Shown here: positions 9,697-58,500 of the stretch, piece by piece | How the letters are laid out: every line of letters begins with the position of its first letter | Position numbering within the stretch: position 1 is the first letter of the stretch | From: Ancylomarina sp. | GTDB taxonomy: Bacteria; Bacteroidota; Bacteroidia; Bacteroidales; Marinifilaceae | Length of the DNA: 64,000 nt | Reading direction: 5' to 3' | NCBI GenBank assembly: GCA_048268005.1 | Contig: JBLWWJ010000003.1 | Coordinates: 383,502 to 447,501, forward strand | The notes under the pieces: model-generated | Databases searched by the model: none | What the model was told of the DNA's origin: nothing | The model's input: only the letters and a program-made list of their open reading frames with translations | Made by a program: the position numbers and the translations under genes

Positions 9697-9700
9697 TTAT

Positions 9701-11848: not shown

Positions 11849-11908
11849 TTCTTGTTTAATTAATCAACTTAAATTTCTTATTGATTTATAGATTTACATC
11901 GATCCTAA

Positions 11909-11925
11909 TACCAATCTTGTGCCAT
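11909..11925 (-). promoter_or_regulatory. Candidate sigma-54 (-24/-12) promoter for the adaptor-ATPase-FtsX operon
   Basis: Minus strand reads TGGCACaagatTGGTA. The -24 TGGCAC is perfect, but the -12 element is imperfect (TTGG/TGGT versus TTGC). It lies about 60 nt upstream of the start at 11848 and next to a sigma-54-dependent activator gene. Confidence 0.4.
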
Positions 11926-11987
11926 TTTCCATAAATGCATATTATTTAAACACTTAGATAGAACGACATCAATAAATGTGTAAATAA

Positions 11988-12008
11988 ATTAGACAGGCCT
12001 TGTCTAAT
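11988..12008. promoter_or_regulatory. 21-nt near-perfect palindrome ATTAGACAGGCCTTGTCTAAT (possible enhancer-binding-protein site)
   Basis: Ten of ten arm positions pair (one is G-T). It lies about 65-85 bp upstream of the candidate -24 element, in the divergent intergenic region. Confidence 0.3.
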
Positions 12009-12088
12009 TTTTTGAAAAGCTTTCTACTTTAGATAAAAAATAGAACTTGTTGTATAGAAAAAATGAATTTCATAGCACAGTCAAAAAA

Positions 12089-18258: not shown

Positions 18259-19566
18259 TTAATCATGATTCGTTACAACATGCTCCTTAAGTAGGGCCTT
18301 AAGTGGATTAAATATGCGCTGAAGCAAGCGTTGATCTTCCGTAATAATCTCAGCAACGCCTTCTATCTTTTGAGCAAACTTCAATTTAATTCCATAATTA
18401 GTTACAAGCCCATTGGCAAGCTCTACATCCAAACTATAGTTATCACCTTCAGGCACCTCCGAAATGGAGCGAATACGTCCCTCAAGCATACCATACTCCA
18501 TATAGGGGTAGTTATTAAGCTTGATATTTACCCTTTGTCCCAGTTTTACTTTACCTGAACGAGTCATGCCTAACTCCACACGTGCAATAATCTGAGTTGA
18601 ATCGAATGGAAGTACCGTAAACACCTTATCTCCTAGTTTTACATTTTGGTTCGCAGACCAAAAACTATTAAAACTTACTGATCCATCAATGGGTGATTTA
18701 AGCAGGTAATTCTGTTCCCACATATCAATCTGAGCCACTAAATTATCATTGGCATGTAGAATAATATCTTGTAATTCTTTTCTCTGTTTTTCCTTATCAA
18801 GATCTAAATCTATGATTTCCTGGTCAACCTGATTAATCTGAATCTGTGTTGACGACAAAGTAGAACGTGAACCATGAAAGGCATAGCTTTGTTGTAAATA
18901 GATTTTCTCAGATTTCTGATATTCTGCCTTAGAAATAACACCTCGTGTATACAGTAAAGAATCTCTATGGAACTCCCTTGAAACAATAGTTAGTTCCTTC
19001 TCCAGAATAGTACGCTGCTTGTATTGACGATTATAATACATCCGGTAATTACTCCTTTTCTGGATCAAAGACGCTTTTTTCTTTTTGTGATATTGCAAAT
19101 CAACAAAACGGTTATAGTCCGCACAAGCCTTTAAATAATTATTAAACACGACCTGCACCTCTCCTAGTCTGTAATCCTTATCTTCATAAACAGTACCTAT
19201 TGGTTTTGTTCCATCAAGTATCGGACTATTCTTTTTCAACTCCTCACTTAAGCTGAAAATATCTTCAAAATTCGCTGGATTCTCAATAACAGCTAACAGT
19301 TCTCCACTAACAACCTTCTGTTTATCTTCCACCTTTAATTCAACAATCTTACCATTTGCTCGAGCAATCAACTCAGCGGGTGGATTCTCGGTAGTCAAAA
19401 CTAACTTTGATTCGATAATCTCAGGGTAAGAGAAAAACCAGGAGCCAATAACCAATATCAGCACCACAAGAAATACTAAGCCCGAACCAACTCGAATGAT
19501 CCATGATGGCATTTTCCCAAGAATTTCCTGAACCGACTCTGATCTTAATTCTATATTATCACTCAT
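18259..19566 (-). CDS. HlyD-family secretion (membrane-fusion) protein, partner of the C39 ABC exporter
   Basis: N-terminal TM (WIIRVGSGLVFLVVLILVIGSWFF), lipoyl-like hairpin, and coiled coil. It lies in the same strand and operon context as 20109..22316. Confidence 0.85.
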   Translation of the reverse strand: MSDNIELRSESVQEILGKMPSWIIRVGSGLVFLVVLILVIGSWFFSYPEIIESKLVLTTENPPAELIARANGKIVELKVEDKQKVVSGELLAVIENPANFEDIFSLSEELKKNSPILDGTKPIGTVYEDKDYRLGEVQVVFNNYLKACADYNRFVDLQYHKKKKASLIQKRSNYRMYYNRQYKQRTILEKELTIVSREFHRDSLLYTRGVISKAEYQKSEKIYLQQSYAFHGSRSTLSSTQIQINQVDQEIIDLDLDKEKQRKELQDIILHANDNLVAQIDMWEQNYLLKSPIDGSVSFNSFWSANQNVKLGDKVFTVLPFDSTQIIARVELGMTRSGKVKLGQRVNIKLNNYPYMEYGMLEGRIRSISEVPEGDNYSLDVELANGLVTNYGIKLKFAQKIEGVAEIITEDQRLLQRIFNPLKALLKEHVVTNHD

Positions 19567-19639: not shown

Positions 19640-20023
19640 TTAAACCTTTAATTTCTCATTGGTAAATTTAACCAGATAATTAATCTCCTTGGGGAGCTCA
19701 CAAAATTCTTTATGAATAAATTGATACTGTTCCTTTGATATTAATCCTCTAATTAAAGATTTCTCGTTCCAGTCGATAGACTCTTTTAAAGATCCCATCG
19801 CATAACGATAGAATTTAATTTTATCCTTTTTATGATAGCGTCCATAACCTTCGGCTATATTTGCTGAAATAGAATCTATTGATCTGGCAAATTGCTTCCC
19901 AACCGTATCTTTTGCAAAATAATCCCATGAAAGAATAATATTCCAAATATAATTTGATAAAACAAAAGCACGCTTATAAGCATAAATCTTATCCAATTCT
20001 AGAAATTTATTTTCCATCATCAA
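19640..20023 (-). CDS. Four-helix-bundle protein (23S rRNA intervening-sequence protein family)
   Basis: 127 aa, all-helical, with motifs FARSIDSISANIAEGYGR and YRYAMGSLKE typical of this family. Confidence 0.8.
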   Translation of the reverse strand: MMMENKFLELDKIYAYKRAFVLSNYIWNIILSWDYFAKDTVGKQFARSIDSISANIAEGYGRYHKKDKIKFYRYAMGSLKESIDWNEKSLIRGLISKEQYQFIHKEFCELPKEINYLVKFTNEKLKV

Positions 20024-20108: not shown

Positions 20109-22316
20109 CTAATTTCCAAGTTCTAACTGATTCTTAACCAATTCGTAATACCTACCTCTCAATTGAGTCAGGTCATTATGGCTGCCATGTTCAACAATTT
20201 GGCCTTTATCCAGGACAATAATTTTATCGGCATTGCGAACGGTGCTTAAACGATGGGCAACAACCACAACCGTACGTCCCTGATTGAATTCATCCAGATT
20301 CTCCATAATGGCTCTTTCGTTGTTGGCATCCAAAGCATTGGTGGCTTCATCGAAGAAAAGGAATTCTGGGTTCTTATAAACTGCTCTAGCGATTAAGATT
20401 CTTTGCTTTTGTCCCTGACTTAAACCATGACCATTAGCTCCAATTTTTGTATTATAACGCAAAGGTAAACTGTCAATAAACTCTTGTATACAGGCTACTT
20501 GTACAGCATAAAGCAGACGTTTCTTATCCACTATCTCATCACCAACGGCAATATTCTTAGCAATGGTATCAGAAAAGATAAAACCATCCTGCATCACAAC
20601 ACCACAGTTCTGACGCCACATGGCTGAGCTGTAATTTTGAATGGAAACCCCACCCAAATTGATCTTTCCCTTAGTTGCTGGATAGAAGCCCAGCATAAGT
20701 TTAATCAAGGTCGTTTTTCCGGAGCCAGAAGCACCAACAATAGCCGTAGTTTTACCTTTGGCAACATTCAAGTCAACTTCATTCAGCACCATCTCAGAAT
20801 GTGGGCCTTCGTATTGAAAACTTACTTTCTCAATATGAATGGATTTATCTTCAGGTAATTCAATTAACTTTTCATCTTTCTCAATCTCTTCATCATCCAT
20901 TTCATGAATCTCACCCAAACGCTCCAATGATATTTTAGCATCCTGCCAGGAGTGAATAAACTGCACCAAATTATCGATAGGCGAATTCAACTGACCGAGA
21001 ATATACTGAACGGCCAGCATCATACCCAAAGTCATACTCCCATTAACCACAGCTTGGGCAGCTAAAAATGTAATCACAATATTCTTGGTTTCATTGAAGA
21101 AGACCGATCCCGAAACCTGATACTGATTCAGAGCTAAACCTTTAGTTCTTACTTGAAACAATTCAGCCTGAATATTTTCCCACTCCCAACGCTTCTGCTT
21201 TTCACAATTATTGAGCTTAATTTCCTGCATCCCTGTAATCAGCTGCACAAGCGAATTCTGATTGCTTGAGAGCTGTGCAAATCGCTTACCATCCAATTCA
21301 CGGCGCTTTTTTAGGAAAAGATTAATCCAGAGAATATAAAGTGATGATCCCAAAAGAAAAACACCGAATATGGTCATATCATAAATTGCCAATACAACTC
21401 CGAATATCAGAAGATTAACCATAGAGAACAGAATGTTCAGGGTAGATGAAGTCAGGAAATTTTCGATACGCGTATGATCCTGTATGCGCTGTAAAAGATC
21501 ACCAATCATCTTGATGTCGAAGAAACCAATGGGCAGTTTCATCAACTTAATCAGGAAATCGGAAATCAGGGAAATATTAATACGAGTTGAAATATGCAAA
21601 AGAATCCAGGAGCGAATAAACTCAACGGATATACGCGAAATAAAAAGCACCATCTGTGCGATGAGTACCAGATAAATAAAACTCAAATTTTGAGTATTGA
21701 TACCCACATCAACCACCGATTGGGTGAGGAATGGAAATATAAGTTGTAGCATACTTCCGAAAAGCATGCCCAGGAATAATTGAAAAAGAAACTTTTTATA
21801 AGGCTTTAGGTAGCGCAAAAGAAAAGCGACACTCTTTTTCTTGCTATTACTCTCATCCTTCGCTTTATAAAAATCAGGTGTTGGTTCAAGAAGCAAACAG
21901 AGTCCCTTCAAGTCTCCATCTACCTTAGTCGACGCCCAGGATTTGACAAATTCCTCTTTTGTAAATTTCAACATTCCTGAAGCCGGATCAGCAACATGAA
22001 CGATGGTTTTATTCTTCTTTTTCTCAATTTTGTGAACCACCACAAAGTGAGCTTGATTCCAATGACAAATGGCCGGTAATGTCGCTTGCTCTGCCAGCTG
22101 CTCAAAGGTAATTCGCACCCCCATGCTCCGAAAACCAATGCTCTCAGCCGCATCAGCAATCCCCATCATCGACACACCTTCACGAGTGATATAAGATTTA
22201 TCACGTAAGGATTGCAAACTATAGGTTTTACCATAAAACTTCGATATCATGCGCAGGCAAGTTGGCCCGCAGTCCATGGCATCGAGTTGACGAAAATGGG
22301 GAAATTTCTTTTTCAT
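20109..22316 (-). CDS. Peptidase-C39-domain ABC transporter (double-glycine peptide cleavage/export)
   Basis: N-terminal C39 domain with catalytic Cys (QLDAMDCGPTCL) and His (NQAHFVVVH), a 6-TM domain, Walker A GASGSGKTT, signature LSQGQKQR and Walker B FLFFDEATNALD. Confidence 0.95.
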   Translation of the reverse strand: MKKKFPHFRQLDAMDCGPTCLRMISKFYGKTYSLQSLRDKSYITREGVSMMGIADAAESIGFRSMGVRITFEQLAEQATLPAICHWNQAHFVVVHKIEKKKNKTIVHVADPASGMLKFTKEEFVKSWASTKVDGDLKGLCLLLEPTPDFYKAKDESNSKKKSVAFLLRYLKPYKKFLFQLFLGMLFGSMLQLIFPFLTQSVVDVGINTQNLSFIYLVLIAQMVLFISRISVEFIRSWILLHISTRINISLISDFLIKLMKLPIGFFDIKMIGDLLQRIQDHTRIENFLTSSTLNILFSMVNLLIFGVVLAIYDMTIFGVFLLGSSLYILWINLFLKKRRELDGKRFAQLSSNQNSLVQLITGMQEIKLNNCEKQKRWEWENIQAELFQVRTKGLALNQYQVSGSVFFNETKNIVITFLAAQAVVNGSMTLGMMLAVQYILGQLNSPIDNLVQFIHSWQDAKISLERLGEIHEMDDEEIEKDEKLIELPEDKSIHIEKVSFQYEGPHSEMVLNEVDLNVAKGKTTAIVGASGSGKTTLIKLMLGFYPATKGKINLGGVSIQNYSSAMWRQNCGVVMQDGFIFSDTIAKNIAVGDEIVDKKRLLYAVQVACIQEFIDSLPLRYNTKIGANGHGLSQGQKQRILIARAVYKNPEFLFFDEATNALDANNERAIMENLDEFNQGRTVVVVAHRLSTVRNADKIIVLDKGQIVEHGSHNDLTQLRGRYYELVKNQLELGN

Positions 22317-30948: not shown

Positions 30949-31023
30949 GGGCGATTAGCTCAGTTGGTTCAGAGCACTTGGTTTACACCCAAGGGGTCAT
31001 AGGTTCGAATCCTATATCGCCCA
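30949..31023 (+). tRNA. tRNA-Val (anticodon TAC)
   Basis: Cloverleaf: acceptor GGGCGAT/ATCGCCC, D-arm AGCTCAGTTGGTTCAGAGC, anticodon stem CTTGG/CCAAG with loop TTTACAC, T-arm ATAGGTTCGAATCCTAT. No encoded CCA. Confidence 0.93.
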
Positions 31024-31052
31024 CAATTGTATAACATACACACAGTCTTCTC

Positions 31053-31127
31053 GGGCGATTAGCTCAGTTGGTTCAGAGCACTTGGTTTACACCCAAGGGG
31101 TCATAGGTTCGAATCCTATATCGCCCA
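31053..31127 (+). tRNA. tRNA-Val (anticodon TAC), identical second copy
   Basis: Same 75-nt sequence, 29 nt after the first copy. Confidence 0.93.
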
Positions 31128-31140
31128 CACCGAGAAATAA

Positions 31141-31580: not shown

Positions 31581-31612
31581 GGGTTACTTTTTGCAAAAAG
31601 AAGGAATAAAGG
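31581..31612 (+). promoter_or_regulatory. Bipartite motif GGGTTACTTTTT-N10-GGAATAAAGG upstream of the sigma gene (candidate autoregulated alternative-sigma promoter)
   Basis: Both blocks and the spacing are identical to 39165-39196. The spacer contains the palindrome CTTTTTGCAAAAAG. The motif ends 10 nt before the ATG at 31623. Confidence 0.55.
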
Positions 31613-36184: not shown

Positions 36185-39058
36185 CTAGACTATGTCTAAC
36201 TCATCTAAACTTTGTTCTTTAACCTTTTTAGATGTTGAGCGCTGCCAAACAAAGTATAGACCTCCAAACAAAATAGTCAGTCCCAGAAACATCAAAATCT
36301 TATGAATCATACTAAATCTGAATAAGCTTTCAGTATCACCAATGGCAACATAGCCCGACCAGAAATAGGGATGTGATTTCAAAGCATCAGCTGATTCAAG
36401 ATATTCCAACTTTGCTTGTTGTAAAGCGACATCTTTAGGAAAACTTTGAGATAAATATTTATAAAATGAAGACATTAAAGTAGAACCCGATAAATCTTCC
36501 ACAGTCCATAGTGTCATAATTAAACTTGGGCAACCAGAATAGAAGAAACCACGTGCTAAACTCATCACACCCTCTCCCTTAAGAAATTTACCATCTCCCG
36601 AATTACAGGCACTCAAAACAACCATTCTCGCTTTAAGATTCATATTATAAATTTCATGGGCATTCAATAAGTCATCATTCAAACTATCAGCGGTTTGAGT
36701 AAAAACCAGTTTTGAATACATCGGATTGTTATCATCTAAAATAGTATGCATAGCTAAATGCAGAATATCAAAACTCTCAGCATTATTTTTAAAATTCGTT
36801 TCTGAAGCCAAATTATCGATATAGGTCTTACCGTTAAATATTTTAGAAATATTTTCCACTTCAACTTTAGCGCCAGGTAAAGGATAAAGCTTGTTGTCGT
36901 GAGCTTGCCTGGTTACCAAAATTGAATCACTCACATTATCATAAGAAGGAGCAAAAGCTAATAGCCTTTTTTCTGAAGACATAGAGAATCCTATATCAGG
37001 ACGCTTGTAAGCTATTGTAGCTGAATTTTGATAACTAATCGGGTTGTGACGAATAAAATAATCTAAATTACGGTAATTCAAGCTCTCAGAATCTCCTTCT
37101 TCTTTTAGTAATACGCCAAAAGGTACATAAGCCAATTTCCCCTCAGGAACAATAATTAGGTGCTTATTCCCGATCACATCTTCGTATGGCTCAATCATAA
37201 ATTGATAAAGCTTATGTGCGGCAGAAATATAATCCTGATAATATTTCATGCTATTACCCGAAAAATCATTGGTCTTTAAACTGGTTCGGATTTTTGTGAT
37301 ACTTCTCTCCAATTCCCCTTTTCTGAGGGGCATTTTTTTCATTTCGAATAGATCAGAACCTAAAGCAAACGAGTATAAAGTCGAATCAGATAAGGCATAT
37401 TCAATCAGAATTTCATCCTCTTTCAGTTGCTTCTGCAGCTCTTCAACAGAAATACTCGCATTATCATACTTTAAGGCATAATAATCAGGATGATCCGTCT
37501 CAAAACGTTTCACCATTTGCTCATATTCAGCATTCAAACCAAAGAGAGTGTGACGCCAATTTGAAATTGAGTCTTGCATGGGATGAAGTTGCTTTCTCTC
37601 CTGATAAATCTTATCACGGTAATCAGCAATGTCCTGTTTCAATTTATGCTCCAGGTTTTGAAGATCGATAGGAATACCTCCAAAAGTTTTAGCGTCAACA
37701 TCATTCAAATAGTTACGCAAACTAGATGCCTTAGCTCGTTCCGAATATCTAAAAGCCTTTTCCTTATAAATTGATTCTCCCGTGACTTCAAACAATCTCG
37801 CAGCCACTTCAATTGCAGTAGAGAAAGTTTCATTTTCGTTAGCACTTAACGCCAATTTTGATTCTTCATCCTGATAGGCAATATGAATTTGATCTATAAT
37901 ATCAACACATAAATCAAAAGTCTCAAGCGATAATTTTAGATATTTAACTTGCTTGGTAGTGTCGTAAAGCTTAAATAAGGCGGAGCCCTTATCATCAATA
38001 ATATCAAAAGTAGTCAACTGACCATCCACCTGCTGAATACTTGGATTCTGATCAACTTCTTCATTATGAAAATCATAGGTGCTGGAAATCAGTGCATTTT
38101 GGTAATACTCTAGAGCCTTAGCATATTCCTTATCCTTAAAATATAAGCCACCTAAATTTTTCAAACAATGAGCCGTGTCAGGATGCTTCTTTCCAAACTT
38201 ATCCAAATAGATTGAGTAGGATTTATTTAGATATGCTTTAGCCAATACACTATTTTCTTTAGAAGCATGAAAAATGGCATAATTTAGATAAAAACTTGCC
38301 AGATCAGAATTCCCCTCTCCGTTCAATTTGATGGATTCCTCAATACTCCAATTTAAATAATGATCGGCCTCCTTATCATAGCACAATTCTTTATAGCAAT
38401 TCCCAATATTATTCAAACTTAAAGAAAGATCTTTAATATTTCTTTCCTTCTTTATTTCATAACCTTCTATTAAAAATTTTAGAGCATTATTATATTCCTT
38501 ATTGCTTTTATAAACTAAACCAAGGTTATTAATTATTCGATCTCTCCAGCGTGATGCCTCAGGGTTTTTCTCAACAATAAATAAGGCTGCCTCATAAAAT
38601 TTTTGAGCTTTTAAGTTATCCTTAGAATTAAAATAAATATTACCCATATTAACATATATCGGGGCTAGTTTTCCGGATGATTCTCCAAAATGATTCTTGC
38701 AAATAGTTTCAGCTGCATTAAAATTAATCAAAGCTTTCTTAAATTTCCCTAACCTAACAAGTGTGGCCCCGTAATTGACTTTATAGCGATACAAAAGTTC
38801 ATGATTCTTTAAGTCATTCTCATTTATGGTGTTTTCAGCTTGTTGGAAATAGCTCTCCGCCCCCTTGTTATTTCGGGAACGCAATTCATTTACGGCCTTA
38901 TTTAGCAGAACGAGCAAGGAAGAATCGGCAGATGTGGTCACATCTGATTGAAAAACGGGTGATGGCTTTGATGCTTTTGCATGAAAATTCGATCCACAAA
39001 AGATAAAAAAGCATAAAGAAATCAGCAGATATCGAAATATTTCTTGTTTTTTTTTCAC
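36185..39058 (-). CDS. TPR-repeat CHAT-domain protein with signal peptide and C-terminal TM anchor (paralog 2)
   Basis: 957 aa with a GTG start, collinear with paralog 1 over its full length. It has the same His/Cys motifs, signal peptide and C-terminal TM. Confidence 0.9.
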   Translation of the reverse strand: MKKKQEIFRYLLISLCFFIFCGSNFHAKASKPSPVFQSDVTTSADSSLLVLLNKAVNELRSRNNKGAESYFQQAENTINENDLKNHELLYRYKVNYGATLVRLGKFKKALINFNAAETICKNHFGESSGKLAPIYVNMGNIYFNSKDNLKAQKFYEAALFIVEKNPEASRWRDRIINNLGLVYKSNKEYNNALKFLIEGYEIKKERNIKDLSLSLNNIGNCYKELCYDKEADHYLNWSIEESIKLNGEGNSDLASFYLNYAIFHASKENSVLAKAYLNKSYSIYLDKFGKKHPDTAHCLKNLGGLYFKDKEYAKALEYYQNALISSTYDFHNEEVDQNPSIQQVDGQLTTFDIIDDKGSALFKLYDTTKQVKYLKLSLETFDLCVDIIDQIHIAYQDEESKLALSANENETFSTAIEVAARLFEVTGESIYKEKAFRYSERAKASSLRNYLNDVDAKTFGGIPIDLQNLEHKLKQDIADYRDKIYQERKQLHPMQDSISNWRHTLFGLNAEYEQMVKRFETDHPDYYALKYDNASISVEELQKQLKEDEILIEYALSDSTLYSFALGSDLFEMKKMPLRKGELERSITKIRTSLKTNDFSGNSMKYYQDYISAAHKLYQFMIEPYEDVIGNKHLIIVPEGKLAYVPFGVLLKEEGDSESLNYRNLDYFIRHNPISYQNSATIAYKRPDIGFSMSSEKRLLAFAPSYDNVSDSILVTRQAHDNKLYPLPGAKVEVENISKIFNGKTYIDNLASETNFKNNAESFDILHLAMHTILDDNNPMYSKLVFTQTADSLNDDLLNAHEIYNMNLKARMVVLSACNSGDGKFLKGEGVMSLARGFFYSGCPSLIMTLWTVEDLSGSTLMSSFYKYLSQSFPKDVALQQAKLEYLESADALKSHPYFWSGYVAIGDTESLFRFSMIHKILMFLGLTILFGGLYFVWQRSTSKKVKEQSLDELDIV

Positions 39059-39164
39059 TGTAGAAAAATAGTTTTAAAAAGCTGAATTTGTGACAAATAG
39101 GCCCTGCGAAATTATTCAAAACATAGGACATATTTATGTTTTTGAAAAAAAACTTTCACTTTCC

Positions 39165-39196
39165 GGGTTACTTTTTATCCAAAAAGGGAATAAAGG
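39165..39196 (+). promoter_or_regulatory. Bipartite motif GGGTTACTTTTT-N10-GGAATAAAGG upstream of the peptide genes
   Basis: Same two blocks and spacing as at 31581-31612. The spacer keeps the inverted repeat CTTTTT-atcc-AAAAAG. The motif ends 43 nt before the ATG at 39240. Confidence 0.55.
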
Positions 39197-39239
39197 GATG
39201 TAAAACGATTCCAATATTCACTTTATAATTTAAATAACC

Positions 39240-39341
39240 ATGGAAAATTTTGAAATTCTTAACGCTGAACAATTATTAGAAGTAAAAGGTGGTCATAATG
39301 AACTAACTCAGAAAGATAATGTAGAAGATTGTATCGTTTAA
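39240..39341 (+). CDS. Double-glycine-leader peptide precursor, 33 aa (MENFEILNAEQLLEVKGG / HNELTQKDNVEDCIV)
   Basis: Found by hand translation; it is below the ORF-track cutoff. The leader has GG at -1/-2 and hydrophobic residues at -4, -7, -12 and -15. It is duplicated 133 nt downstream with only synonymous changes after codon 2. Confidence 0.75.
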   Translation: MENFEILNAEQLLEVKGGHNELTQKDNVEDCIV

Positions 39342-39372
39342 TTTTTTTATTAATTTTCCAAAATATACTATT

Positions 39373-39474
39373 ATGAATAATTTCGAGATTCTTAACGCTG
39401 AACAATTATTAGAAGTAAAAGGTGGTCATAATGAACTAACTCAAAAAGATAATGTAGAAGATTGTATCGTTTAG
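39373..39474 (+). CDS. Double-glycine-leader peptide precursor, 33 aa (MNNFEILNAEQLLEVKGG / HNELTQKDNVEDCIV)
   Basis: Second copy. It differs from the first by residue 2, three synonymous codons and the stop codon. Confidence 0.75.
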   Translation: MNNFEILNAEQLLEVKGGHNELTQKDNVEDCIV

Positions 39475-39553
39475 TCACCTACTAAAATAAAGTGGTCAAA
39501 TTCAAAAGCCACGATAACTCTCACAATAAAGTACCATTAGAAAAGATTCCTGA

Positions 39554-40381
39554 ATGGATAAACGTCCGACTTACTGCGAGCTTGAAGAACAGTTAGCAGA
39601 GGCATTACAAAGAGCAGAAGGAGCAGAAGATTTAAAGAATGCTTTCCTTGCGAATATTTCACACGAAATACGCACGCCCATGAATGCTATAATCGGAGCA
39701 TCGGACATCCTGCGAGACGAATCACTCACTAATGACGAACGAAATGAATTTGCTTCTATCCTAAATATTAGCAGCCGTTCACTTCTCGATTTACTCAATC
39801 GAATTATAGATTTATCCCAATTGGATTCAGGCATCATGCAAGTCAATGAATCCGAAATTGATCTGGAAGCGATTATCATTAGATTATTCTCAATCTATGA
39901 TGAAAAAATCAAAGTTCTAGATAAAGACATTACAATTGATTACAAAATCAATTGCCTTAATCCCAATATTATAATTGATGGTGAAAAGCTGGAGAAATCA
40001 ATCAGCTATCTACTGGATAATGCCATTAATTTTACACAATCAGGAAAAATTCAACTCTCTTGTTCCTTACAAGATGATCAGAACCTTGAAATCTTTGTAA
40101 AAGATACAGGTGCAGGAATTAGCGTTTCCCAACAGCAAGCAATCTTTGAAAGATTCAATCAGGTTGATAATTCATATACACGCAAGCAATCTGGTGCGGG
40201 CATCGGTTTGAGTCTGTGCTCACGTTATATAAAATTGATGAACGGTACTCTAAAACTTGATTCTGAATTAGGAAAAGGCTCTACTTTTCATCTATCCATT
40301 CCATGTTACCACAAGTCTGATGAACTTGAAATTGTAGAAACGGCAACAGATATTCAAAACAAGAATACGTTTGTAAAATAG
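39554..40381 (+). CDS. Soluble histidine kinase (coiled-coil + HisKA + HATPase; no TM, sensor or receiver domain)
   Basis: H-box FLANISHEIRTPMNAI, N-box LLDNAINFT, G-boxes DTGAGIS and GAGIGLS. It starts 79 nt after the second peptide gene on the same strand. Confidence 0.9.
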   Translation: MDKRPTYCELEEQLAEALQRAEGAEDLKNAFLANISHEIRTPMNAIIGASDILRDESLTNDERNEFASILNISSRSLLDLLNRIIDLSQLDSGIMQVNESEIDLEAIIIRLFSIYDEKIKVLDKDITIDYKINCLNPNIIIDGEKLEKSISYLLDNAINFTQSGKIQLSCSLQDDQNLEIFVKDTGAGISVSQQQAIFERFNQVDNSYTRKQSGAGIGLSLCSRYIKLMNGTLKLDSELGKGSTFHLSIPCYHKSDELEIVETATDIQNKNTFVK

Positions 40382-46290: not shown

Positions 46291-47745
46291 TTAAAGTTCT
46301 TTTCTTAATCGGGCAACAGGAATATTCAATTGTTCTCGATATTTAGCCACTGTTCTTCGAGCAATAACGTATGATTTCTCTTTCAGTATTGCAGCTAATT
46401 TATCATCGGTCAATGGTTTTTTCTTGTCCTCATTATCAACACACTCTTTTAGGATGTTCTTAATTTCACGCGTAGAAACTTCTTCACCTGTATCGGTTTG
46501 CAATCCTTCAGAAAAGAAATATTTCAATGAAAAAATACCAAAATGAGTTTGAATGTATTTCGAATTGGAAACACGTGAGATTGTAGAGATATCCAAAGAA
46601 GTTAACTCTGAAATATCCTTCAAAATCATCGGTTTTAATTTCTTTTCATCGCCTTCAAGAAAATACTCGTGCTGAAAATCAATAATAGCTTTCATACTTA
46701 ACATGAGTGTATTCTGACGTTGACGAATCGCATCAATAAACCATTTGGCTGAATCCAGTTTTTGCTTAACAAACATAACCGCATCTTTCTGCTCTTTCGA
46801 TTGATTTTCCTTATTATTAGAATAATCATTAAGCATATCGGCATAAGATCGACTGATATGTAAATCAGGAACATTACGCGAGTTTAAACTCAAGTTTAAT
46901 TCCCCATCTTGCTCTTCTAGAATAAAGTCAGGAATAATGGTTGGTGATGGCTTTGACATTGGATTTACAAAAGCTCCTCCTGGTTTAGGATTTAACTTTA
47001 AAATCTCATCTACAGCATATTTAAAATCTTCATCATCCAAATTCAATCGTTTCTGAATTTTCTCATAATGTTTACGAGTAAATTCATCAAAATATTTCTT
47101 TAGAATGATATGTGCATTTTTTACATCCGGGTTATGAGATCCCTTACGCTTAATCTGCAAAAGCAGACACTCCTGAAGATCACGTGCACCAATACCAGCC
47201 GGGTCGAAATCCTGAATCACATGCAGCAATTCTACCAATTCTTCAAATGTCGTATTTATACCTGTCGAGAATGCAAGATCATCAACAATACTATCGATAT
47301 CACGTCGCAAGTAACCATCTTCATCAATATTACCAATCAGATATTCAGCTAATGCAGCCTTTTCGGGAGTAAGAATCCTTAAACCCAATTGGGTAATTAA
47401 TTGCTCATGAAAAGTCGTTCCTCCTGAGAAAGGAATATCCTCGTGCTTATCATCCTTAGAGTAATTTTGTGCAGCCAGTTTGTAGGAAGGGGTATCGTCA
47501 TCGTCTATATAGTCTTCCAATGAAAATTCTTCCTGGTCTTTATCTTTTATTTCGTTATCGTCTTCCTGGTAATCATCCTGAATGGTTTCTTCACTACCTC
47601 CTTCATCAAGAACAGGATTTTCTTCCAACTCTTTTTTGATTCTTTCTTCAAGTTGCAGAGTAGGAAGCTCCAATAGTTTAATCACCTGAATTTGTTGAGG
47701 TGATAACTTTTGCAATAATTTTTGTTGTAGGCTCTGCTTAAGCAT
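46291..47745 (-). CDS. rpoN: RNA polymerase sigma-54 factor
   Basis: N-terminal Gln/Leu-rich region I (MLKQSLQQKLLQKLSPQQIQ), acidic region II, and the C-terminal RpoN box ARRTVAKYREQLNIP. Confidence 0.95.
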   Translation of the reverse strand: MLKQSLQQKLLQKLSPQQIQVIKLLELPTLQLEERIKKELEENPVLDEGGSEETIQDDYQEDDNEIKDKDQEEFSLEDYIDDDDTPSYKLAAQNYSKDDKHEDIPFSGGTTFHEQLITQLGLRILTPEKAALAEYLIGNIDEDGYLRRDIDSIVDDLAFSTGINTTFEELVELLHVIQDFDPAGIGARDLQECLLLQIKRKGSHNPDVKNAHIILKKYFDEFTRKHYEKIQKRLNLDDEDFKYAVDEILKLNPKPGGAFVNPMSKPSPTIIPDFILEEQDGELNLSLNSRNVPDLHISRSYADMLNDYSNNKENQSKEQKDAVMFVKQKLDSAKWFIDAIRQRQNTLMLSMKAIIDFQHEYFLEGDEKKLKPMILKDISELTSLDISTISRVSNSKYIQTHFGIFSLKYFFSEGLQTDTGEEVSTREIKNILKECVDNEDKKKPLTDDKLAAILKEKSYVIARRTVAKYREQLNIPVARLRKEL

Positions 47746-49592: not shown

Positions 49593-52500
49593 TTATTCAA
49601 CAATTAGGCGACCTCTATACAAGTTTTCACCTCGAATTTCAATGATATATTGCCCTGAAGCCAAATCACCTCGTTTTAATTCAAAACGATTACTATTAAT
49701 ATCATTCTCAATTAAAACCAAACGTCCATTCACATCGTAAACAGATAGACAATACGGACTGAAATTTGGATTATCAAACTCAATTCTAGATTTGATTTTC
49801 ATCGGATTGGGAAAAACAGTTAACTTTTTCACATTTGAATCAGGATCATCAATCCCTGTTATAGTTGACTTTGTAGTCAAATAATTCGAACGGGATACAC
49901 CATAATCACTATTATATGATTTTAATTGTGAAATATCACAGGTATACTCATTTTCTACCTCAAGTACATAGTAGAAATTCTCTACATTAGGAGGATTATT
50001 ATCGATATACTTAGATTCCGTATTTGATATTGATTCTATTTTCACCATCTCATCTACCGAAGTACCGCGGTAAATATTGTAGGTATTAAACTCAAATCCT
50101 TCGTACTTGTTCCAAATTAAATTAATCTCACCATTTATACCTTGATTAGCCTGTAAAAGCATCGTATGATGAACATCGCTTATTTGAGATTCAACACCAC
50201 AAACATCGGTAATGGAAATGGCGTAAGTATGAGAACGAGCAGATGGATTTGACTCCTCGTCAACAATTACACTTGTTTCTTCAATAGGAACATTCTTAAC
50301 CAGCTCCATAGATGAAACTGAATTGGCTTCCTTATAGATATTATAAGAAACAATGCCAAGGTCTTTTTGGCGTTCCCAAACAATCTCGTTTTTGTTATCG
50401 CTATTTACCGTCACTAGACAAAGTTGTTGATGCTGGTAAGTATTGAGAGTTTGTAAGTCAAATGTAGCTGTGGCCGAACACAAATTTTCATCATAAGCAC
50501 GAACAAAAAATTCTCCTGGATGTTCAGGATTAACGGAATTTCCGCCTTCTCCTGTAGACCATAGATAAGTATTGAAACCTTCGGTCGCTAAAAGTTCCGA
50601 CTTTTCTGGACAAAAATATTCACCGTGACTGGATGTGATTTCAACTGTTTGTGGCGTGTTCTTCTCAAGAATCGTTGCACTCGTTTCAGCTGTACAATCC
50701 ATAGCATCACTCACAACAACAGAGTATTCTCCTGCTCCGATTTTATATAAGCGATTACTGGTTGACTTTTCCTCGTCACTCCATAAATAAGTGTAAGGAA
50801 TTGTTCCTCCTGTAATTATTAAATCAATACCACCAGTATTTTCACCATCACATGAATTAAATATTTGTGATTTAACAGTAAACTCTTCAGGAGCATCAAG
50901 CTTGATACTGTCAATAGCTGTACAATTATTTGCATCGGTTACAGTAACATGGTAATATTTACCACCTACTAGCGTAGAAATAGTTGAATCACTAGTTTGT
51001 AGGTTGTCATCCCACTTAAATGCGAATGGTGCTTTTCCTCCAATAGGAGTAATTGTAGCTGAACCATCGTTTAAGCCGTAACACGAAACATTGCTCCAGT
51101 CGGTAAACTTAAGGTGAGGATCGTGTCCTACACTTACACTTGCAGTAGCAGTACAGTTGTTGGCATCTGTTAAAGTAACGGTATACTCAGCATCTTCGCT
51201 TAACCCTTCAACTCTTGCTGTAGTACTCGTACTGTTATCATCCCAAATAAAGGAATATGGTGCTGTACCTCCAGTTGGAATACAAAGTGCTGCCCCATCG
51301 GTTCTACCATTACAAGTCGTATTGAAACCTTCCACATTAGCACGTAATGGAACAGGATCAGTAATTACAACTTCTCTATCAGCAATTAACTCACCATTTG
51401 TATTGGTAACAATTAGATGATAAATTCCAGCTTTTAGGTTATCGAAAATATTATTATCCTGGAAAGATTCACCGTTATTTATTGAATATTGATACGGTGC
51501 AGTATCACCTGTTGTCGTAATGCTTAGGGAACGATTACCTTCACCAGAACAACCGCCATTATTAACAGCAACTAAAACTTCTTCATCAATACATTTTGTG
51601 TATCTGATAAGTCCTTTTATTCCTCCATACCAAATACGACCTTTCGCATCATCTTGAATACTTGTAATTGAATTGCCTTTAAAACCAGGTTCTTCAGAAT
51701 ATGAGACCCAATCGGTACCATTGAATTTTAGCATACCAGTATTACCGTAACCATCCCAATAGTTTTCGAAATAGCTAATCCAGATATTGCCATCAGCATC
51801 TTCCCCTATAGTATTAATTACTTGATTTGGATCTATACCATGTTGTTCTAGCTTGTAATAGGTCCACTCTTCGTTTTCGAGAATAGCATAGTGTGAATTG
51901 CTCGAGACCCAAATTCTATTTTTACTGTCAACAAAAATGTTATTCAAAGAATAGAAATCGTTACCCATATTCTCTTCAATAGTGTAGTGCGTGATATTAC
52001 TACCATCAAACTTCGAAATTGTTTTCTGATACTCGTTTTCATACTTAATCCAGATGTTACCTTGCGAATCGGCATCAATTGCCGAAATAGCGTTGGTTTT
52101 AAGGCCGTCCTCAGTCGAATAATTAATAATCTCATTACCCTTCATGCGAGTTAAACCTTCCTCATTGTAAATCATCCAAACGTAATCGTTGACATCGATA
52201 CTTAGTTTTTTAATCCAGTTAGATTTAAGACCATTAGCTATATCGTATTTGTCGAAAGTAGTACCATTATATTTGTAAACACCCTGGTCGGACGCTACCC
52301 ATACTTTAAGTTCTGAATCGGTATCTAAGTCATTTACTGAACCTTGGAAACCATCTTCATAATTGAATATTTTCCAGTTGTTCCCATCGAACTTTTTAAG
52401 GCTATTTTCCCAATTGGAACTACCTACCCACAAGTTCTTTTCTGCATCTAGCGACATACACTGAACACTTGCATTTGAACCATTTGCTTTGTGTAGTGTT

Positions 52501-55500
52501 GTCCATTGTTCATTAAAGTATTTACTAATACCATTATCGCCGTTTGAGAAACCTACCCAAATAGCACCAAATGCATCTTCACCAATAGCAGATACGTAAT
52601 TTGATGGTAGATCAACATCTTTAATATGAGATTGCCAAACACCTTCGGAGTAATGAAGCAAACCTTCGTGAGTTCCTACCCAAACGTCACCTTCTGTATC
52701 GCAGAAAATATCCGAAATATATGTACTAGGTACGTTTAAGCCAGTTTCAACTCGATTCCAGTTATCACCATCAAAATTAATTATTCCTGACTGACCTTCT
52801 CCAGTCCACGATGAACTCATCCAGATATCACCATTGATATCTTGAGTAATGTTTCTAACACCGCCAAGGCTTATGTTATTTTCATATTGGAAATTTTCCC
52901 AATCTTCACCTTGGGTTTTGCTTAAAATTTTATAACGCGAAACGCCAGAATTAGTACTTACCCAAACATAATCATCCTTATCTACAAATATGGATGAGCA
53001 ATGATCGTCACTTAATCCATCCTGATGTGTGAAGTTTGAGAATTTCTCACCATCAAATCGACTCACACCTTTATCGGTTGCAATCCATAGGTTACCATAG
53101 CTATCTTCAGCTATGCCCATAACATTGTTTCCTGCCAAGCCATCGGTTTCTTTGTATGGGTGCCACGATCTGCCATCGAACATATTTAGTCCTTTATTGT
53201 CGTAGTCGGCACCTAGCCAAATATTGCCATTTTTGTCTTTATGGATGGCGCTATAGCTAAAATTAGCGTTTATAATGTCCCAGTCTTTACCATTGTATGA
53301 TGTGAGCTCGTTTCCGGTAGAAAACCAAATGGTACCTTCAAAATCGGTTTCAATGGCTCTAATGTCTGTGCTATTCAGTTTAATTTCTCCATCTACCGCT
53401 GAGAACCCACATAGGTTTTCTTCTAGTAGAGGAAGAACTTTTAAAACAACTGAAGTCTGAGTCATACAAGCCTTATTATCGACAACGTTAATTTTATATA
53501 GCTTGTCGGCTTCGAGATTATTAACGTAAGGCGTTGTTTTCTCTATACCTTCCCAATAAAAAGAATATGGAGCATTACCACCAGTGGCCTGAATTGTGGC
53601 ATCACCATCAGCTAAACCTTGTCGTGATATGTTTGTACTGTCAATTACCAGAGCGATTAATTCATCAGGTTGAGTCACCCATGCGCTGTCTTTGTATACT
53701 TTACCATCAGTATCAGTTACTAAAACGTGATACACTCTATCAGCCTCACTCACCAAAACTTTAGAATCTTGAGTGGCATTCTCGTCATCCCAAAGATAAG
53801 TGAATGGTGCTTTCCCTGATAACATCTCGATTTCGATAGAACCATCATTACCACCATTACAAGAAATAGCACGAACAATTTTTCTAGAAATGGATTCATT
53901 TTCAAAAGCACCTAAATCGACTGGAGAACCTGTAGGAATAGATCTAGCTAAACCACCGAAATCGGTAGTTGGCATATGGTAATCTGTATCAAATACATTG
54001 ATTGATGCAATACCAGCGCCAACAGAAGGAGATATATCCAACAGGTGAAAATCACCATTTTCAGCATCTACAAAATATTCATCCCTATTAAAGTTTGAAT
54101 CTCCATAAGTGAAATTCTGTAGGTTACTTTCTTCACCAACAATACCTTTTTGTCCATTCTTAATATTCGAGTGATGAATTTCTATGCTTTTGCCATAACC
54201 ATCCATACTTGTTTCATAAGAAATTTCCTGAGATGAATTGTTTCGTAATATTGAATTCAACACCAATAATTTGCTATCACCATAACTCATTCGAACAGCT
54301 TGGTTGTTATTCACCACCGTTGAATTGATCAAAGCTACTTTAGCATTATTCTCCAGGTTTATTACTTCTGTCAAAATACCTGAAGCAACCAAGTTTTTAA
54401 ATGAGTAATTTCCTTGATTGATTCTTACCCCCTGTTGTCCACCTTTTAATTCAAGATTACTAAATACTACCTGAGTAGTTCCTTCCCAGTTACCTTGGGC
54501 AACAATAGCTGTTTGTCCAAAATTTTCAAAAGATAGGTGACCAAACTCTACATTACTGTATTGGTTCAAATAAACAGAACAATAGGAGTTTGACTTACCT
54601 TTAAAAGTAATGTTATCAATCACTGATCCATTATAAATATTTTGAATGCTTAAAGCGTCACCTTCATCTGTAGCAATATTATTCTCAAATTGAACATTAG
54701 TAACAGAAGCCTCAGAATCAGAAATAAACATTCCACCACCCCTACGTGCACGATTGTTTTTAACAATTAAATGATTTAAAGTTGGGTTCGAATTCCGAAT
54801 CGTAATTCCACCTCCATTATCGTATTCGTTCATCTCTGAACGACCATTCTGAATGGTTAATCCAATCAGTTTGGCATTTCGAGATTCTCCATTTAGGAAC
54901 ACTATAACGCTTCCTTTTTCACTACCATCCAATACTGTTTGAGAAATAAAACTTTTATCTTTATCTAAAATGTATCTGGAAGCCAGTGTTACGTTCTTAC
55001 CATTGAAACGGATATTTTCAGTATAAATACCGGGTTCAACAATAATGGTATCCAAGTCACAAGCACGATCAATCGCTGTTTGAATTAGTGACAGTGGCAA
55101 TTCTTCTGAACCGATATTTTCATCATCCCCTTCAGTAGAAACAAAATAATACTGCCCTTCACGAGAAAGGATTTCAATCTCCTCAACTAGTTCGCAATTA
55201 GAATCAGAAATAGTCAAAAAGTACTTTCCTGCTTTTAATCCGTTAAAAGTAGAATATGCATTAATTATATCCGCATTTTCAGCTTCAGGCCAGGCTTCAA
55301 CAGTTCTATTCTCATTATAGTCTGTACTGCTCAATCTGAGTTGATATGAAGAGTTTCCCATCATTTCATTTTGTACAGGTTTTCCGCCAGATATTTTCAC
55401 CTCTATTCGTCCAGAGATATCATTTACGGCTTCACATACATGTTTTATACTTGACGTAAATAGTAAAGGATCTTTAACCTCAATAGAACTCGAAATAATT

Positions 55501-58500
55501 GTTCCTTCAGTATCTGTTACGCTAACATTATATGTGCCTTCCTTCACATTAAACAGGTTCTGATCTGTTGAAGTAAACTCATCAGGACCAGTCCAAAGAA
55601 TACTCTTTACTTCTTTGTTGAAAACCTCCAAGGTGATATCTCCACCACATTCAGAAAGTTGGATGTTTAAATCTCCAACCGATTTTTCGTGTTCAATAGC
55701 TCCCAGGTCGGGTTTAGAATCGACAGGATTTGGTCTTGCTGTTCCATAAAGATCAGTTAGAGGAGTTAAATAAGTTACTCCATCAATTACAAATTCACTT
55801 ATTCCCGCACCAATGGCTGGTGAAGTTGAAACCAATCCGAAATCATTATTCGTACTATCAATAAATTCAATTGCATTTTCAAGATTACCTTCACCCCAAG
55901 TAATATCTAACTCCTCTGAATTAGATATACCATCATAAACAATTCCATCTAATCCTTTTTCTATCACAGAATAGTTGATACTAATCATGCGATCATAGTC
56001 CTGAGAATATGACGGAACAATTTGCTGATACTTATTTCCAGAAATAATGGTATTAAAAATATTGATATGGTTTTCTTGATATCCTTGATATATACCTGTT
56101 TGATTGTTAGCAATGGTACCATTTATAATATCTAAAGTTCCTTTCTCAATTTGAATCCCATAAGATTGATTTTTTATAATTAGTGGGTTTTCAAGAGTAA
56201 CTCTTGAATTTTGGGTCTCGTTACTGTAGATGTAAAGACCAGTTCCCTTATTCCCGATCAGCTGCAAATTAGAAATTAGCAAATCATTTTGAGCACTAAC
56301 TCTAAATGCATAATTCCCTTCATTATTTCTAATGATAATGTTATTTACTCCTGCAGATGAAACATTCTCCAGATAGAGTCCACTTCCCTCTTCATTTGCT
56401 TTATTGGATTCAATCGTAAGATTTTCCATGAAACATTCAGCAGAATTACAATAGATAGCACCACCTCGTCTGGCCTCATTATTCTTCAAAATCAAATCAC
56501 GTAATTGAAATTGACTTCCATTCCAATAGGACAAATTGATTCCTCCTCCAGATCCGTTATAATCCATGGAGGTTGATTTTCCATTTATAACAGTAAATCC
56601 AATAAAACCGGAAGCATCAATTTCTTTTTCCGAATCCTGTCCCGCGTATGCTGCTTCATCAAAATTGATATTTACAACAGAAGCTTTCTCCTGCCCATCA
56701 ATAATAGTGTTTGCTATATGATCATGGTTTCCATCCAAAAGAAATTGAGATCCTATTACAATTCTCTTGTTTATTGATAAATTTTCTAAATAAGTACCGT
56801 CCTTTACGATAATGGTATCCAAATCACAGGCATGATTAATTGCCGTCTGGATAGTTGCTAAAGGAGATTCCTCAGTTCCCAGATTCTCATCATCACCTTC
56901 AAGAGAAACAAAATGAAATCTAGTTTCTTTTGATAAAACTTCAATCTCTTCAACGAGCTCACAAGATGAGTCAGCTATCTTCAATATATACTTTCCGGCC
57001 TTTAAATTACCAAAGCTTGCATTCCCCAAACTCATCTCCCCATTTTCTGTATTGGGATAAATAGTAACCGTTCTTTGCTCGGAATAATCAATTCCACTAA
57101 GGTTCACTTGGTATTGTGATTCATAATCATAGTTCCTAGGTTTTCCACCTGCAACTTGAATTTCAAGCCTTCCGTTAGCTTCGCTGACTGCAGCACATAC
57201 ATGCTTGATATCTGAAGTAAATCGCAAAGGATCTTTCACCTCAATGGATGAAGTCACTGTAGTACCATCTGTGTCAGTTACGCTTACATTATAAACACCT
57301 TCTTTAACACTTACCAAATTCTGCTCTGATGAAGTAAACTCATAAGGACCAATCCAAAGAATACTCTTTACTTCTTTGTTAAAAATTTCAAGAGTAATAT
57401 CACCGCCACATTCTGCAAGTTGGATATTTAAATCTCCGACCCCCTGTTCATGTTCAATGGCACCCATATCCGGTTTTGAACCAGCAGGATTTGGTCTTAC
57501 TGTTCCAAAAAGATCTTTTTCTGGAGTTGAATAAGTTATACCATCAATAATCAGTTCATTGATCCCGGCTCCAATAGCGGGAGAAGTCGCAACTAAACTG
57601 AAATTATTCTGAGTCGTATCCACAAACTGTATGGCAGTTTCAAGATTACCTTCACCCCAATTAACTTCGGCACTACTCTGGCTATTACCGGCATCCATTG
57701 TTTGAATCCCCTCGAGCCCTTTCTCTAAAGCAGAATAATTTACATTTAAAGAGTGATCGTAGTCCTGAGAATAAGATGGTGCGATTTGCTGATATTTATT
57801 TCCAGAGATAATGGTATTAGAAATATTGATATGGTTCTCTTGATATCCCTGATATATACCATATTGATTATTAGCAATCGTACCATTAATAATATCTAAA
57901 GTACCTCTCTCAACTTGAATACCATAAGATTGATTTTTTACAATTAATGGATTTTCAAGAGTAACTCTTGAATTTTGTGTCTCATTACTGTAGATGTAAA
58001 GACCAGTTCCCTGATTCCCGACTAGCTGCAAATTAGAAATTAGTAAATCACTTTGAACATTAACTCTAAAAGCATTATTTCCTTCATTATTTCTAATGGT
58101 AATACTATTCACATGAGCAGATGAAACATTCTCCAAGTAGACACCACTTCCCTCTTCATTAGCTTTATTGGATTCAATAGTCAAATCTTGCATTAAGCAA
58201 GCAGAATAGTATGCACTGATACCACCACCACGTCGAGCCTCATTGTTTTTAACTATAAGATTCTTTAACTCGAATTTCGTTCCAGCCCAATAGTACAGAT
58301 TGATACCTCCACCTGTTTCATTTTCGTTGTATGAGGTAGACTTACCATTTTGTATAGTAAACCCTATCAAGCCGGATGAATATTCCATTCCATATGCCAA
58401 TCCTGTTGAAACTTTAACTGCTGTTTCCAACTGCTGTCCATCAATTATGGTTTTGGTAATATGATCTTTATTACCATCCAACAGAAATTCAGATCCGAGT

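Follow-up and report, generated by a model that had tools for sequence, protein, structure and literature searches.

A stretch of 64 kb from Ancylomarina sp. (contig JBLWWJ010000003.1, G+C content 35%; hereafter the window) was analyzed with a focus on two very short open reading frames (ORFs), each of 33 codons, which lie head to tail and are separated by a spacer of 31 nt. A preliminary description had read these ORFs as tandem genes encoding peptides with a double-glycine (GG) leader, and its coordinates, spacing and translations agreed with those obtained here (Table 1). The product of gene 1 consists of an 18-aa GG leader, MENFEILNAEQLLEVKGG, followed by an acidic core of 15 aa, HNELTQKDNVEDCIV, and the product of gene 2 carries the leader MNNFEILNAEQLLEVKGG and a core identical to that of gene 1. 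Beyond what had been described, the informative context of these genes comprises a sigma factor of the extracytoplasmic function (ECF) type, an anti-sigma-like protein, TPR-CHAT proteases, a histidine kinase and a promoter-like element found at two of these genes.

Table 1. Position and main attributes of the features of the window dealt with in the text
Feature	Position	Strand	Remarks
Peptidase-containing ABC transporter (PCAT), candidate exporter	20109..22316	-	PF03412 E 1e-32
HlyD-type periplasmic adaptor beside PCAT	18259..19566	-	Family matches
Second copy of GGGTTAC-N15-GGAATAAAGG	31581..31612	+	10 nt separate its end from the start codon of the ECF sigma gene
ECF-type sigma factor, 186 aa	31623..32183	+	TIGR02937, 63.5 bits (cut-off 42.9)
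Anti-sigma-like protein, 247 aa	32180..32923	+	Start overlaps sigma stop by 4 nt (translationally coupled)
TPR-CHAT protease paralogue A, 958 aa	33108..35984	-	PF12770 CHAT, E 1e-59
TPR-CHAT protease paralogue B, 957 aa	36185..39058	-	Divergent from peptide genes; His/Cys dyad H766/H770, C817
Bipartite element GGGTTAC-N15-GGAATAAAGG	39165..39196	+	43 nt upstream of peptide gene 1
Peptide gene 1	39240..39341	+	Translates to MENFEILNAEQLLEVKGGHNELTQKDNVEDCIV; orthologues in 20 other loci
Peptide gene 2	39373..39474	+	Translates to MNNFEILNAEQLLEVKGGHNELTQKDNVEDCIV; core same as gene 1
Small 5-6-bp hairpin (GTGGT...GCCAC)	39492..39512	+	Between last peptide stop and kinase start; judged by eye
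Sensor-less histidine kinase, 275 aa	39554..40381	+	HisKA and HATPase_c only

Base-by-base comparison of the two ORFs showed 96 of 102 nt to be identical. As had been claimed, the six differing nucleotides are confined to codon 2 (GAA/AAT, encoding E or N), three synonymous changes (TTT/TTC, GAA/GAG and CAG/CAA) and the stop codon (TAA/TAG), and similarity stops sharply at the start and stop codons, the 31-nt spacer and the outer flanks being unrelated. About 19% of the possible single-base changes in codons 3–33 are synonymous, which gives p ~0.007 for three synonymous changes out of three. Both peptides are already called as genes in a public protein collection (NCBI source; exact look-up). 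No further GG-type small ORFs were found across the 64-kb window, and no Rfam match was obtained over positions 38800–39800.

Related loci were assembled from a pattern scan of metagenomes and from look-ups of genomic context that started at the adjoining kinase and CHAT genes. This yielded 46 intact copies of the peptide gene in 21 loci (individual loci are cited below by number, as in L020), with one to five tandem copies per locus, in Ancylomarina, Labilibaculum, Marinifilum, further metagenome-assembled genomes (MAGs) of Marinifilaceae and one Draconibacterium-like MAG. An exhaustive phmmer search against 1.84 billion representatives returned only four related clusters, all of them such peptides, indicating that the family is narrow. 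The closest genome found was that of Ancylomarina euxinus M1P, where the CHAT protein beside the peptide genes has 85% identity to that of the window, and which bears two tandem peptide genes at the same place, encoding ...GG-HNELTQKDIVEEAIV; the 5' end that is specific to copy 2 in the window, AAT AAT TTC GAG, is common to copy 2 of A. euxinus. ORF length is 30–33 codons in all Marinifilaceae copies and 52 in L020, residues M1, F4, E5, L12, G17 and G18 are invariant, and pooled pairwise pN/pS is 0.41, in leader and core alike, for copies spanning genera whose neighbouring proteins share only 45–55% identity. In L020, where the CHAT gene is 32% identical, a divergent peptide of 52 aa, ...FELLSENEMLIVRGG-TEPTKPISRPRDVYDFEEE, has a homologous leader and an acidic tail.

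The ORFs are very short and the region is AT-rich, features that would suit non-coding repeats or ORFs arisen by chance. Such an origin is scarcely credible in view of 46 intact copies across genera with frame-respecting substitutions, the low pN/pS and a similarity bounded by start and stop codons, and it is refuted as far as sequence analysis goes. Because of the number of copies, their strict length, the invariant residues and the pN/pS of 0.41, both ORFs can be regarded as almost certainly real coding genes.

Leader, core and candidate exporter

GG is found at residues 17–18 in 45 out of 45 Marinifilaceae copies and at residues 32–33 in L020. The leader, which is the best-conserved part of the peptides, has V/I at position -4, L at -7 (the invariant L12), L/V at -12 and F at -15 (the invariant F4), and its family consensus, [LV]-[SN]-x-x-[EQ]-L-x-x-[VI]-x-G-G, fits the canonical LSxxELxxIxGG position by position; Labilibaculum copies read VSQEELQNIKGG. 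The leader residues named in the preliminary description were thus found in their places, both in the two translations and in the family consensus, and the conservation of frame and GG motif on which its prediction had been staked is evident in the 46 intact copies with their invariant G17/G18.

Hidden Markov models (HMMs) of GG-leader families were also considered (PF10439, PF03047 and TIGR01847, plus TIGR04149). The window peptides scored 21.6 and 18.8 bits on PF10439 (E 2e-4 for gene 1), the gathering cut-off being 27.1, and matched the EntF induction-factor model weakly. TIGR01847 and TIGR04149, the two models by which the prediction was to be checked, gave no match with the window peptides, and the matches of some relatives fell below the cut-offs. 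Among 26 family members, 21 matched PF10439 at E<=0.01 (best 6e-6), nine matched TIGR01847, two matched ComC (3.6e-6) and four matched TIGR04149 at E>=0.007. Every match of the family was to a GG-leader family; none was demonstrated above a curated cut-off, these models spanning longer mature regions.

The PCAT (peptidase-containing ATP-binding cassette transporter) of the window, which had been named as the exporter, aligned full-length to PCAT1 (4RY2, E 2e-114) and has kept the Gln/Cys/His/Asp motifs of its C39 peptidase domain, which is predicted to be catalytically competent. Orthologues are present in Marinifilum, A. longa and Ancylomarina, two of them on the same contig as the peptide locus. 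Identity amounts to 82–96% in other Marinifilaceae and is still ~70% in many Bacteroidales and in other phyla. Since its conservation extends far outside the range in which the peptides occur, this transporter is probably not dedicated to them, so that the earlier assignment stands for the catalytic motifs and not for an exclusive role; such conservation implies a widespread substrate. Processing and export of the peptides by a PCAT nevertheless appear rather likely from their leader anatomy. Between the PCAT and HlyD adaptor genes lies a gene for a 23S rRNA intervening-sequence (four-helix-bundle) protein (19640-20023).

Predicted cores are 12–15 aa long in Marinifilaceae and 19 aa long in L020, with a net charge of -2 to -5, figures that uphold the earlier placing of the mature product below class II bacteriocins in size and nearer to peptide pheromones. 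The cores have a K/R-D/S centre in common and end in two acidic, one small and two hydrophobic residues, [ED][ED][CAGI][ILV][VF]. The description of an acidic 15-mer with one Cys holds for the window; in many orthologues the Cys is replaced by Ala, Gly or Ile, and disulfide or thiol chemistry is therefore not a feature of the family.

These properties bear on whether the peptides could be precursors of peptides that are made by ribosomes and modified after translation (RiPPs), or an unusual small bacteriocin or microcin, with tailoring and immunity genes elsewhere in the genome. All matches of the family are to bacteriocin or RiPP leader models, including TIGR04149 in 4 of 26 members, one or two Cys are present in many cores, and tandem multi-copy precursors are common in RiPP clusters. 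By contrast, the core has neither the size nor the charge of a class II bacteriocin, conservation does not extend to the Cys, and no immunity ORF lies between CHAT and kinase genes in any locus. For a radical SAM RiPP of the TIGR04149 type, both a match of the window peptides and a maturase in the conserved block are missing. As that block also lacks a transporter gene and the locus is a syntenic region of the core genome dominated by signalling proteins, an origin of this kind is improbable. The mature peptides of bacteroidetocins and class II microcins are much longer, the cores found here being acidic, of 12–19 aa and placed in a regulatory locus. What these toxins of Gram-negative bacteria, class IIa-like in the case of bacteroidetocins (PMC6671954, PMC12219008), have in common with the present peptides is the phylum-level logic of a GG leader and PCAT export.

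The tandem copies were compared within and between genomes. Copies 1 and 2 of the same genome are 1–7 nt apart in their core regions in seven of eight genomes, whereas cores taken from different genomes differ by ~12 of 45 nt in any pairing of copies. Leaders, by contrast, keep a copy-specific orthology, with 6.0 nt of difference for copy 1 versus copy 1 and 10.1 nt for copy 1 versus copy 2. The identity of the two cores in the window appears from these distances to be mainly the result of concerted evolution. Of the earlier claim that a duplicated gene under purifying selection, and not a chance ORF, is seen here, the genes are real and selection is supported by the cross-species comparison; the near-identity of the paralogues is not a measure of it. 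The behaviour of the cores would be expected from gene conversion, and equally from a signal that is kept matched to its partner. Cores divergent between genomes and homogenized within them, attached to orthologous leaders, suggest a pherotype-like pattern.

The surrounding module

The ECF sigma factor is 94–96% identical across Ancylomarina loci. The anti-sigma-like protein has an acidic cytoplasmic N-terminus, one transmembrane (TM) segment (residues 84–102) and a periplasmic TPR domain, and its N-terminus showed no Pfam match; the protein has no Cys/His motif. In both TPR-CHAT paralogues the N-terminus is signal-like and a C-terminal TM helix precedes a basic tail, indicating that the bulk of the protein lies outside the cytoplasm. 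In 44 aligned homologues, reaching down to 22% identity, H766, H770 and C817 do not vary. A sequence search against the PDB gave only generic TPR matches. An AlphaFold2 model of paralogue B (pLDDT 86.6, pTM 0.82) retrieved with Foldseek Csx29, the TPR-CHAT of craspase (E 3e-16), separases, and DdvA (8rot, E 8e-13). The cytoplasmic tail of paralogue B (...DELDIV) was considered as a mimic of the peptide C-terminus and rejected, since A. euxinus and L020 do not conserve it.

The kinase has neither a TM or hydrophobic segment nor an input domain. Antisense to the 5' part of its gene, a 102-aa ORF (39571-39879, minus strand) is open also in L001, L005, L006, L007 and L013 and is probably a by-product of the conserved sense frame. 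No response regulator follows the kinase gene in the window. A stand-alone receiver of 126 aa, conserved near the module in three genera, is encoded in L016 (12412-12792), L017 (12390-12773), L018 (2941-3321) and L019 (12334-12714), which come from Labilibaculum, Marinifilum, A. longa and one MAG. Its gene is the second one downstream of the kinase gene, past those for a membrane protein of 109 aa and for RuvB, and its product is a candidate partner for phosphorylation by the kinase. In Ancylomarina, the receiver block is replaced by Sir2 and a PHO4-type transporter. Sir2 was rejected as a member of the module, as it is syntenic within Ancylomarina only.

Peptide genes are located 79–133 nt upstream of the kinase gene in all loci with a visible 3' flank, and the order CHAT, peptides, kinase is observed in 12 out of 12 loci with both flanks visible, with no counter-example. 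The pair of sigma and TPR250 genes is beside the CHAT genes in the window and in L001, L013, L015, L016, L017 and L019, which are all the loci long enough to show it. For L020, the 8 kb of DNA obtained to each side of the peptide-CHAT pair contained no called kinase gene. A more distant locus of Bacteroidota (P0306, on a contig of JGI 3300072015) contains the parts of the module in shuffled order: HK286, TPR252 and an ORF of 57 aa, the sequence of which could not be read, run in one direction as a single operon, CHAT967 runs in the opposite one, and sigma194 is on the other side. Shuffled order with retained membership is strong evidence for functional linkage. Combined, these comparisons of gene content and order indicate that the peptides are one of five parts of a conserved signalling module found in Marinifilaceae and their relatives, the others being the ECF sigma factor, the single-pass anti-sigma-like TPR protein, the membrane-anchored periplasmic TPR-CHAT protease and the histidine kinase.

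The constant position of the peptide genes directly upstream of an input-free kinase would also fit intracellular micro-regulators of this enzyme, which would not be exported and whose GG-like N-terminus would belong to a helix that binds the kinase; modulation of kinases by small proteins such as Sda, KipI and MgrB is known. However, the leader is the best-conserved part of the peptides and fits the PCAT recognition consensus, all HMM matches are to exported GG-leader families, and L020 retains the peptide-CHAT pairing with no kinase gene called in the 8 kb on each side. Taken together, these observations leave little probability to a role of this type.

PADLOC returned no defence-system match, save a generic one to an ATPase domain. 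Upstream of the sigma operon there are two tandem tRNA-Val(TAC) genes (30949-31024 and 31053-31128), which are 100% identical to those of A. euxinus; the two repeat units are identical to each other over 77 nt (30949-31025 and 31053-31129).

A promoter-like element shared with the sigma operon

The bipartite element upstream of peptide gene 1 has a second copy immediately before the ECF sigma gene (Table 1). A search of the window allowing up to three mismatches returned exactly these two matches, both of them exact, with 0.08 expected. In L001, L013, L015, L016, L017 and L019, sites were found at those same two positions only; L020 has a variant of the element, GGGTTAC-N16-GAATA, and both sites are present. 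The pairing of peptide and sigma elements was observed in every genus examined, and the element is absent from the CHAT and PCAT genes. The register of the T-run and A-run differs between the two sites, whereas the distance between the outer blocks is identical. For the same reason, namely varying arm spacing with fixed outer-block spacing, an RNA hairpin formed by the T5/A5 palindrome of the element was rejected. At positions 39197-39203, the peptide-side site continues as G-[AG]TG-TAA in every genus, a continuation which the sigma-side site does not have; it can be read as a start codon with a stop codon right behind it, and could be an initially transcribed region or a start-stop element.

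The 180 nt upstream of peptide gene 1 are 97% identical to A. euxinus, compared with 84% for the surrounding 22 kb, and the CHAT-peptide intergenic region is, alongside tRNA genes, among the stretches most conserved with respect to that genome. Across genera only one block survives, GGGTTAC[TC]TTTT...AAAA..GGAATAAAGGGRTGTAA. The remainder of the intergenic region (39059-39164 and 39204-39239) presumably holds the CHAT promoter or operators. Scans for sigma-70 promoters and intrinsic terminators found nothing, none of either lying between the peptides and the kinase gene, and no Bacteroidetes TAnnTTTG box is present between the CHAT and kinase genes.

ECF sigma factors usually autoregulate, a property routinely used to find their target promoters (PMC7826278), and a two-block element of fixed spacing before an ECF sigma gene is a signature of such autoregulation. 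Judging from the shared element, the peptide operon is likely to be co-regulated with the sigma operon, and it is probably part of an autoregulated ECF regulon in which this sigma factor would read the element.

The hairpin ahead of the kinase gene has arms that in orthologues read GTGAT/ATCAC, GTAGT/ACTAC and GTGGTT/AACCAC. Among Ancylomarina loci, GTGGT/ACCAC, GTGAT/ATCAC and GTAGT/ACTAC are apparent compensatory changes (by eye), with a loop of variable length. It is not followed by a U-tract. It may be an attenuator or an mRNA-stabilizing element, and it may set the ratio of peptide to kinase mRNA.

Possible roles of the peptides

From what can be read directly in the DNA, namely the genes, leader anatomy, synteny, the shared element, the fold and topology of the TPR-CHAT proteins and the catalytic residues of the PCAT, we infer which sigma factor reads the element, cleavage and export of the peptides, their target and the sign of the feedback. 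The resulting model, of a sigma-controlled, exported peptide acting on the TPR-CHAT/anti-sigma pair, is put forward tentatively, its chances as a whole being a little short of even. The ECF sigma factor would transcribe its own sigma/anti-sigma operon and the peptide genes, and probably the kinase gene too, from the GGGTTAC-N16-GAATA promoter. The 18-aa leader would be cut after Gly-Gly and the core exported by the C39-peptidase ABC transporter with the HlyD adaptor. Once released, the acidic 15-mer might bind, through its acidic-hydrophobic C-terminus, the TPR domain of a TPR-CHAT protein or of the anti-sigma-like protein, and modulate CHAT-dependent proteolysis of the anti-sigma protein and release of the sigma factor. 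If the peptide activates, an autoinducing positive-feedback loop would result. The co-transcribed kinase would, for want of an input domain, be controlled by its abundance and relay the output to a receiver protein.

Several observations weigh against this model. No GG-leader HMM reached its curated cut-off with the window peptides, and the PCAT gene, whose product is not a dedicated partner of the peptides, is 17 kb away from the peptide genes and has no copy of the promoter motif. The anti-sigma role is deduced from gene position and topology, and the element could be the operator of another regulator. Having no TM segment, the kinase cannot be the receptor. L021 and L022 carry sigma genes and CHAT genes, the latter 33–39% identical, and no recognizable GG peptide. 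Finally, a peptide of 1.76 kDa that has left the cell through both membranes would need to get back into the periplasm in order to reach a TPR domain anchored in the inner membrane, unless release takes place into the periplasm only, as may be the case.

The last difficulty makes room for a different role, in which the ECF response has the peptides as its output, exported to affect other cells or an unrelated receptor or to serve some other extracellular purpose, for example binding of metal, with no feedback. The shared element shows co-regulation with the sigma operon only, and binding of the peptide by a TPR domain is a hypothesis. The linkage of peptide and CHAT genes is, however, tight and ancient, the two being divergent neighbours even in L020, and cores homogenized within and divergent between genomes suggest a matched partner. 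A pure output role is for these reasons considered unlikely. For the favoured model itself, the step at which the peptide signals on the TPR-CHAT/anti-sigma pair is doubtful when taken singly, though better placed than an output role. Its most specific form, in which a self-made, PCAT-exported acidic peptide would be the ligand of a periplasmic TPR-CHAT site-1 protease freeing the very ECF sigma factor that transcribes the peptide genes, is more doubtful still and only slightly ahead of that role.

A full-text literature search found no description of a module of peptide, ECF sigma factor and TPR-CHAT protease. Among known systems, the closest in layout are Gram-positive pheromone modules, namely ComC with its competence-stimulating peptide (ComC/CSP-ComAB-ComDE), BlpC, PlnA and EntF: as in the ComC-ComD gene order, a histidine kinase gene comes directly after a short GG-leader gene, the gene for the PCAT is found elsewhere, the mature peptide is of pheromone size, the core diverges on a conserved leader, and weak HMM matches to ComC and EntF were obtained. 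Unlike in these systems, the kinase is a soluble HisKA enzyme where they have a polytopic HPK10 receptor, a LytTR regulator is missing, the element recurs at an ECF sigma operon where those systems have a direct-repeat box, the peptide is acidic and not cationic or amphiphilic, and the host is a diderm of the Bacteroidota. The locus is an instance of GG-leader peptides in a new regulatory architecture.

A second comparison is with DdvA of Myxococcus xanthus, an anti-sigma protein with a periplasmic TPR-CHAT that has been proposed to cleave itself upon an unknown signal and thereby release the ECF sigma factor DdvS (PMC11506125). In both cases an ECF sigma factor is paired with an extracytoplasmic TPR-CHAT of craspase/separase fold bearing a His-Cys dyad. 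DdvA, however, fuses a zinc-binding anti-sigma domain, a TM helix and the TPR-CHAT, whereas here the TPR-CHAT is separate and encoded on the opposite strand, and the anti-sigma-like protein has only a small TPR ectodomain and no zinc-binding motif. The locus studied here also has a peptide array and a kinase, and no link to a defence island.

Precedents exist for ligands of the type envisaged. The C-termini of outer membrane proteins activate site-1 cleavage by DegS in the DegS/RseA/sigma-E system, and TPR domains recognize C-terminal peptides (Hop/EEVD, PEX5/SKL). The microprotein DimA activates the site-1 protease AlgW through a C-terminal motif, with positive feedback (AlgW/MucA/AlgU; PMC12780092). 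As in those systems, a periplasmic protease directed at an anti-sigma protein would be turned on by a short polypeptide bearing a conserved C-terminal motif. DegS and AlgW are PDZ serine proteases with Sec-exported ligands, whereas a caspase-like TPR-CHAT and a GG leader would be involved here, in a hypothetical interaction. As to export, HetC, a PCAT of Nostoc, is likewise a Gram-negative transporter proposed to export a regulatory and not a toxic peptide, and signalling through PCAT substrates is still described as lacking evidence in Gram-negative bacteria (PMC10986499). HetC differs in that its substrate is unknown and no GG peptide is encoded nearby, whereas here the candidate substrates are known and the link to an exporter is the deduced part.

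GG-leader peptide pheromones are textbook biology in Firmicutes. We know of no established system of cell-cell signalling by peptides in Bacteroidota, and none was found in the literature search. If the favoured model were true, it would bring together three fields, the export of GG-leader peptides, caspase-like proteases and regulated anti-sigma proteolysis, and provide Bacteroidota with quorum sensing by an autoinducing peptide that acts through regulated proteolysis and not through a membrane kinase. It would also provide a first natural small ligand for a TPR-CHAT protease of bacteria that is not part of a CRISPR system, together with 'pherotypes' that are specific to strains and lie in the variable positions of the core. 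The pairing of a periplasmic TPR-CHAT with an ECF sigma factor has recently been described structurally for DdvA, the activating signal being unknown, and the present locus gives a candidate ligand that can be synthesized, together with a predicted promoter ready for reporter fusions, natural specificity variants and cultivable hosts (A. euxinus and Labilibaculum antarcticum). Should the model fail, a well-defined family of genes shorter than the length cut-off of the initial ORF list and a predicted ECF promoter with a partial regulon would still be available.

Other features of the window are located away from the module. Positions 2307-14801 contain three tandem MacB/FtsX-like ORFs (~790–800 aa), an ABC ATPase and an HlyD-like adaptor; of the two ORFs of this series that were scanned, 2307-4694 and 7132-9537, both carry FtsX and MacB_PCD domains, and the cluster is adjoined by a sigma-54-dependent response regulator and a PAS histidine kinase. 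The gene rpoN is found at 46291-47745, and a giant ORF of 3932 aa occupies 49593-61391 on the minus strand.

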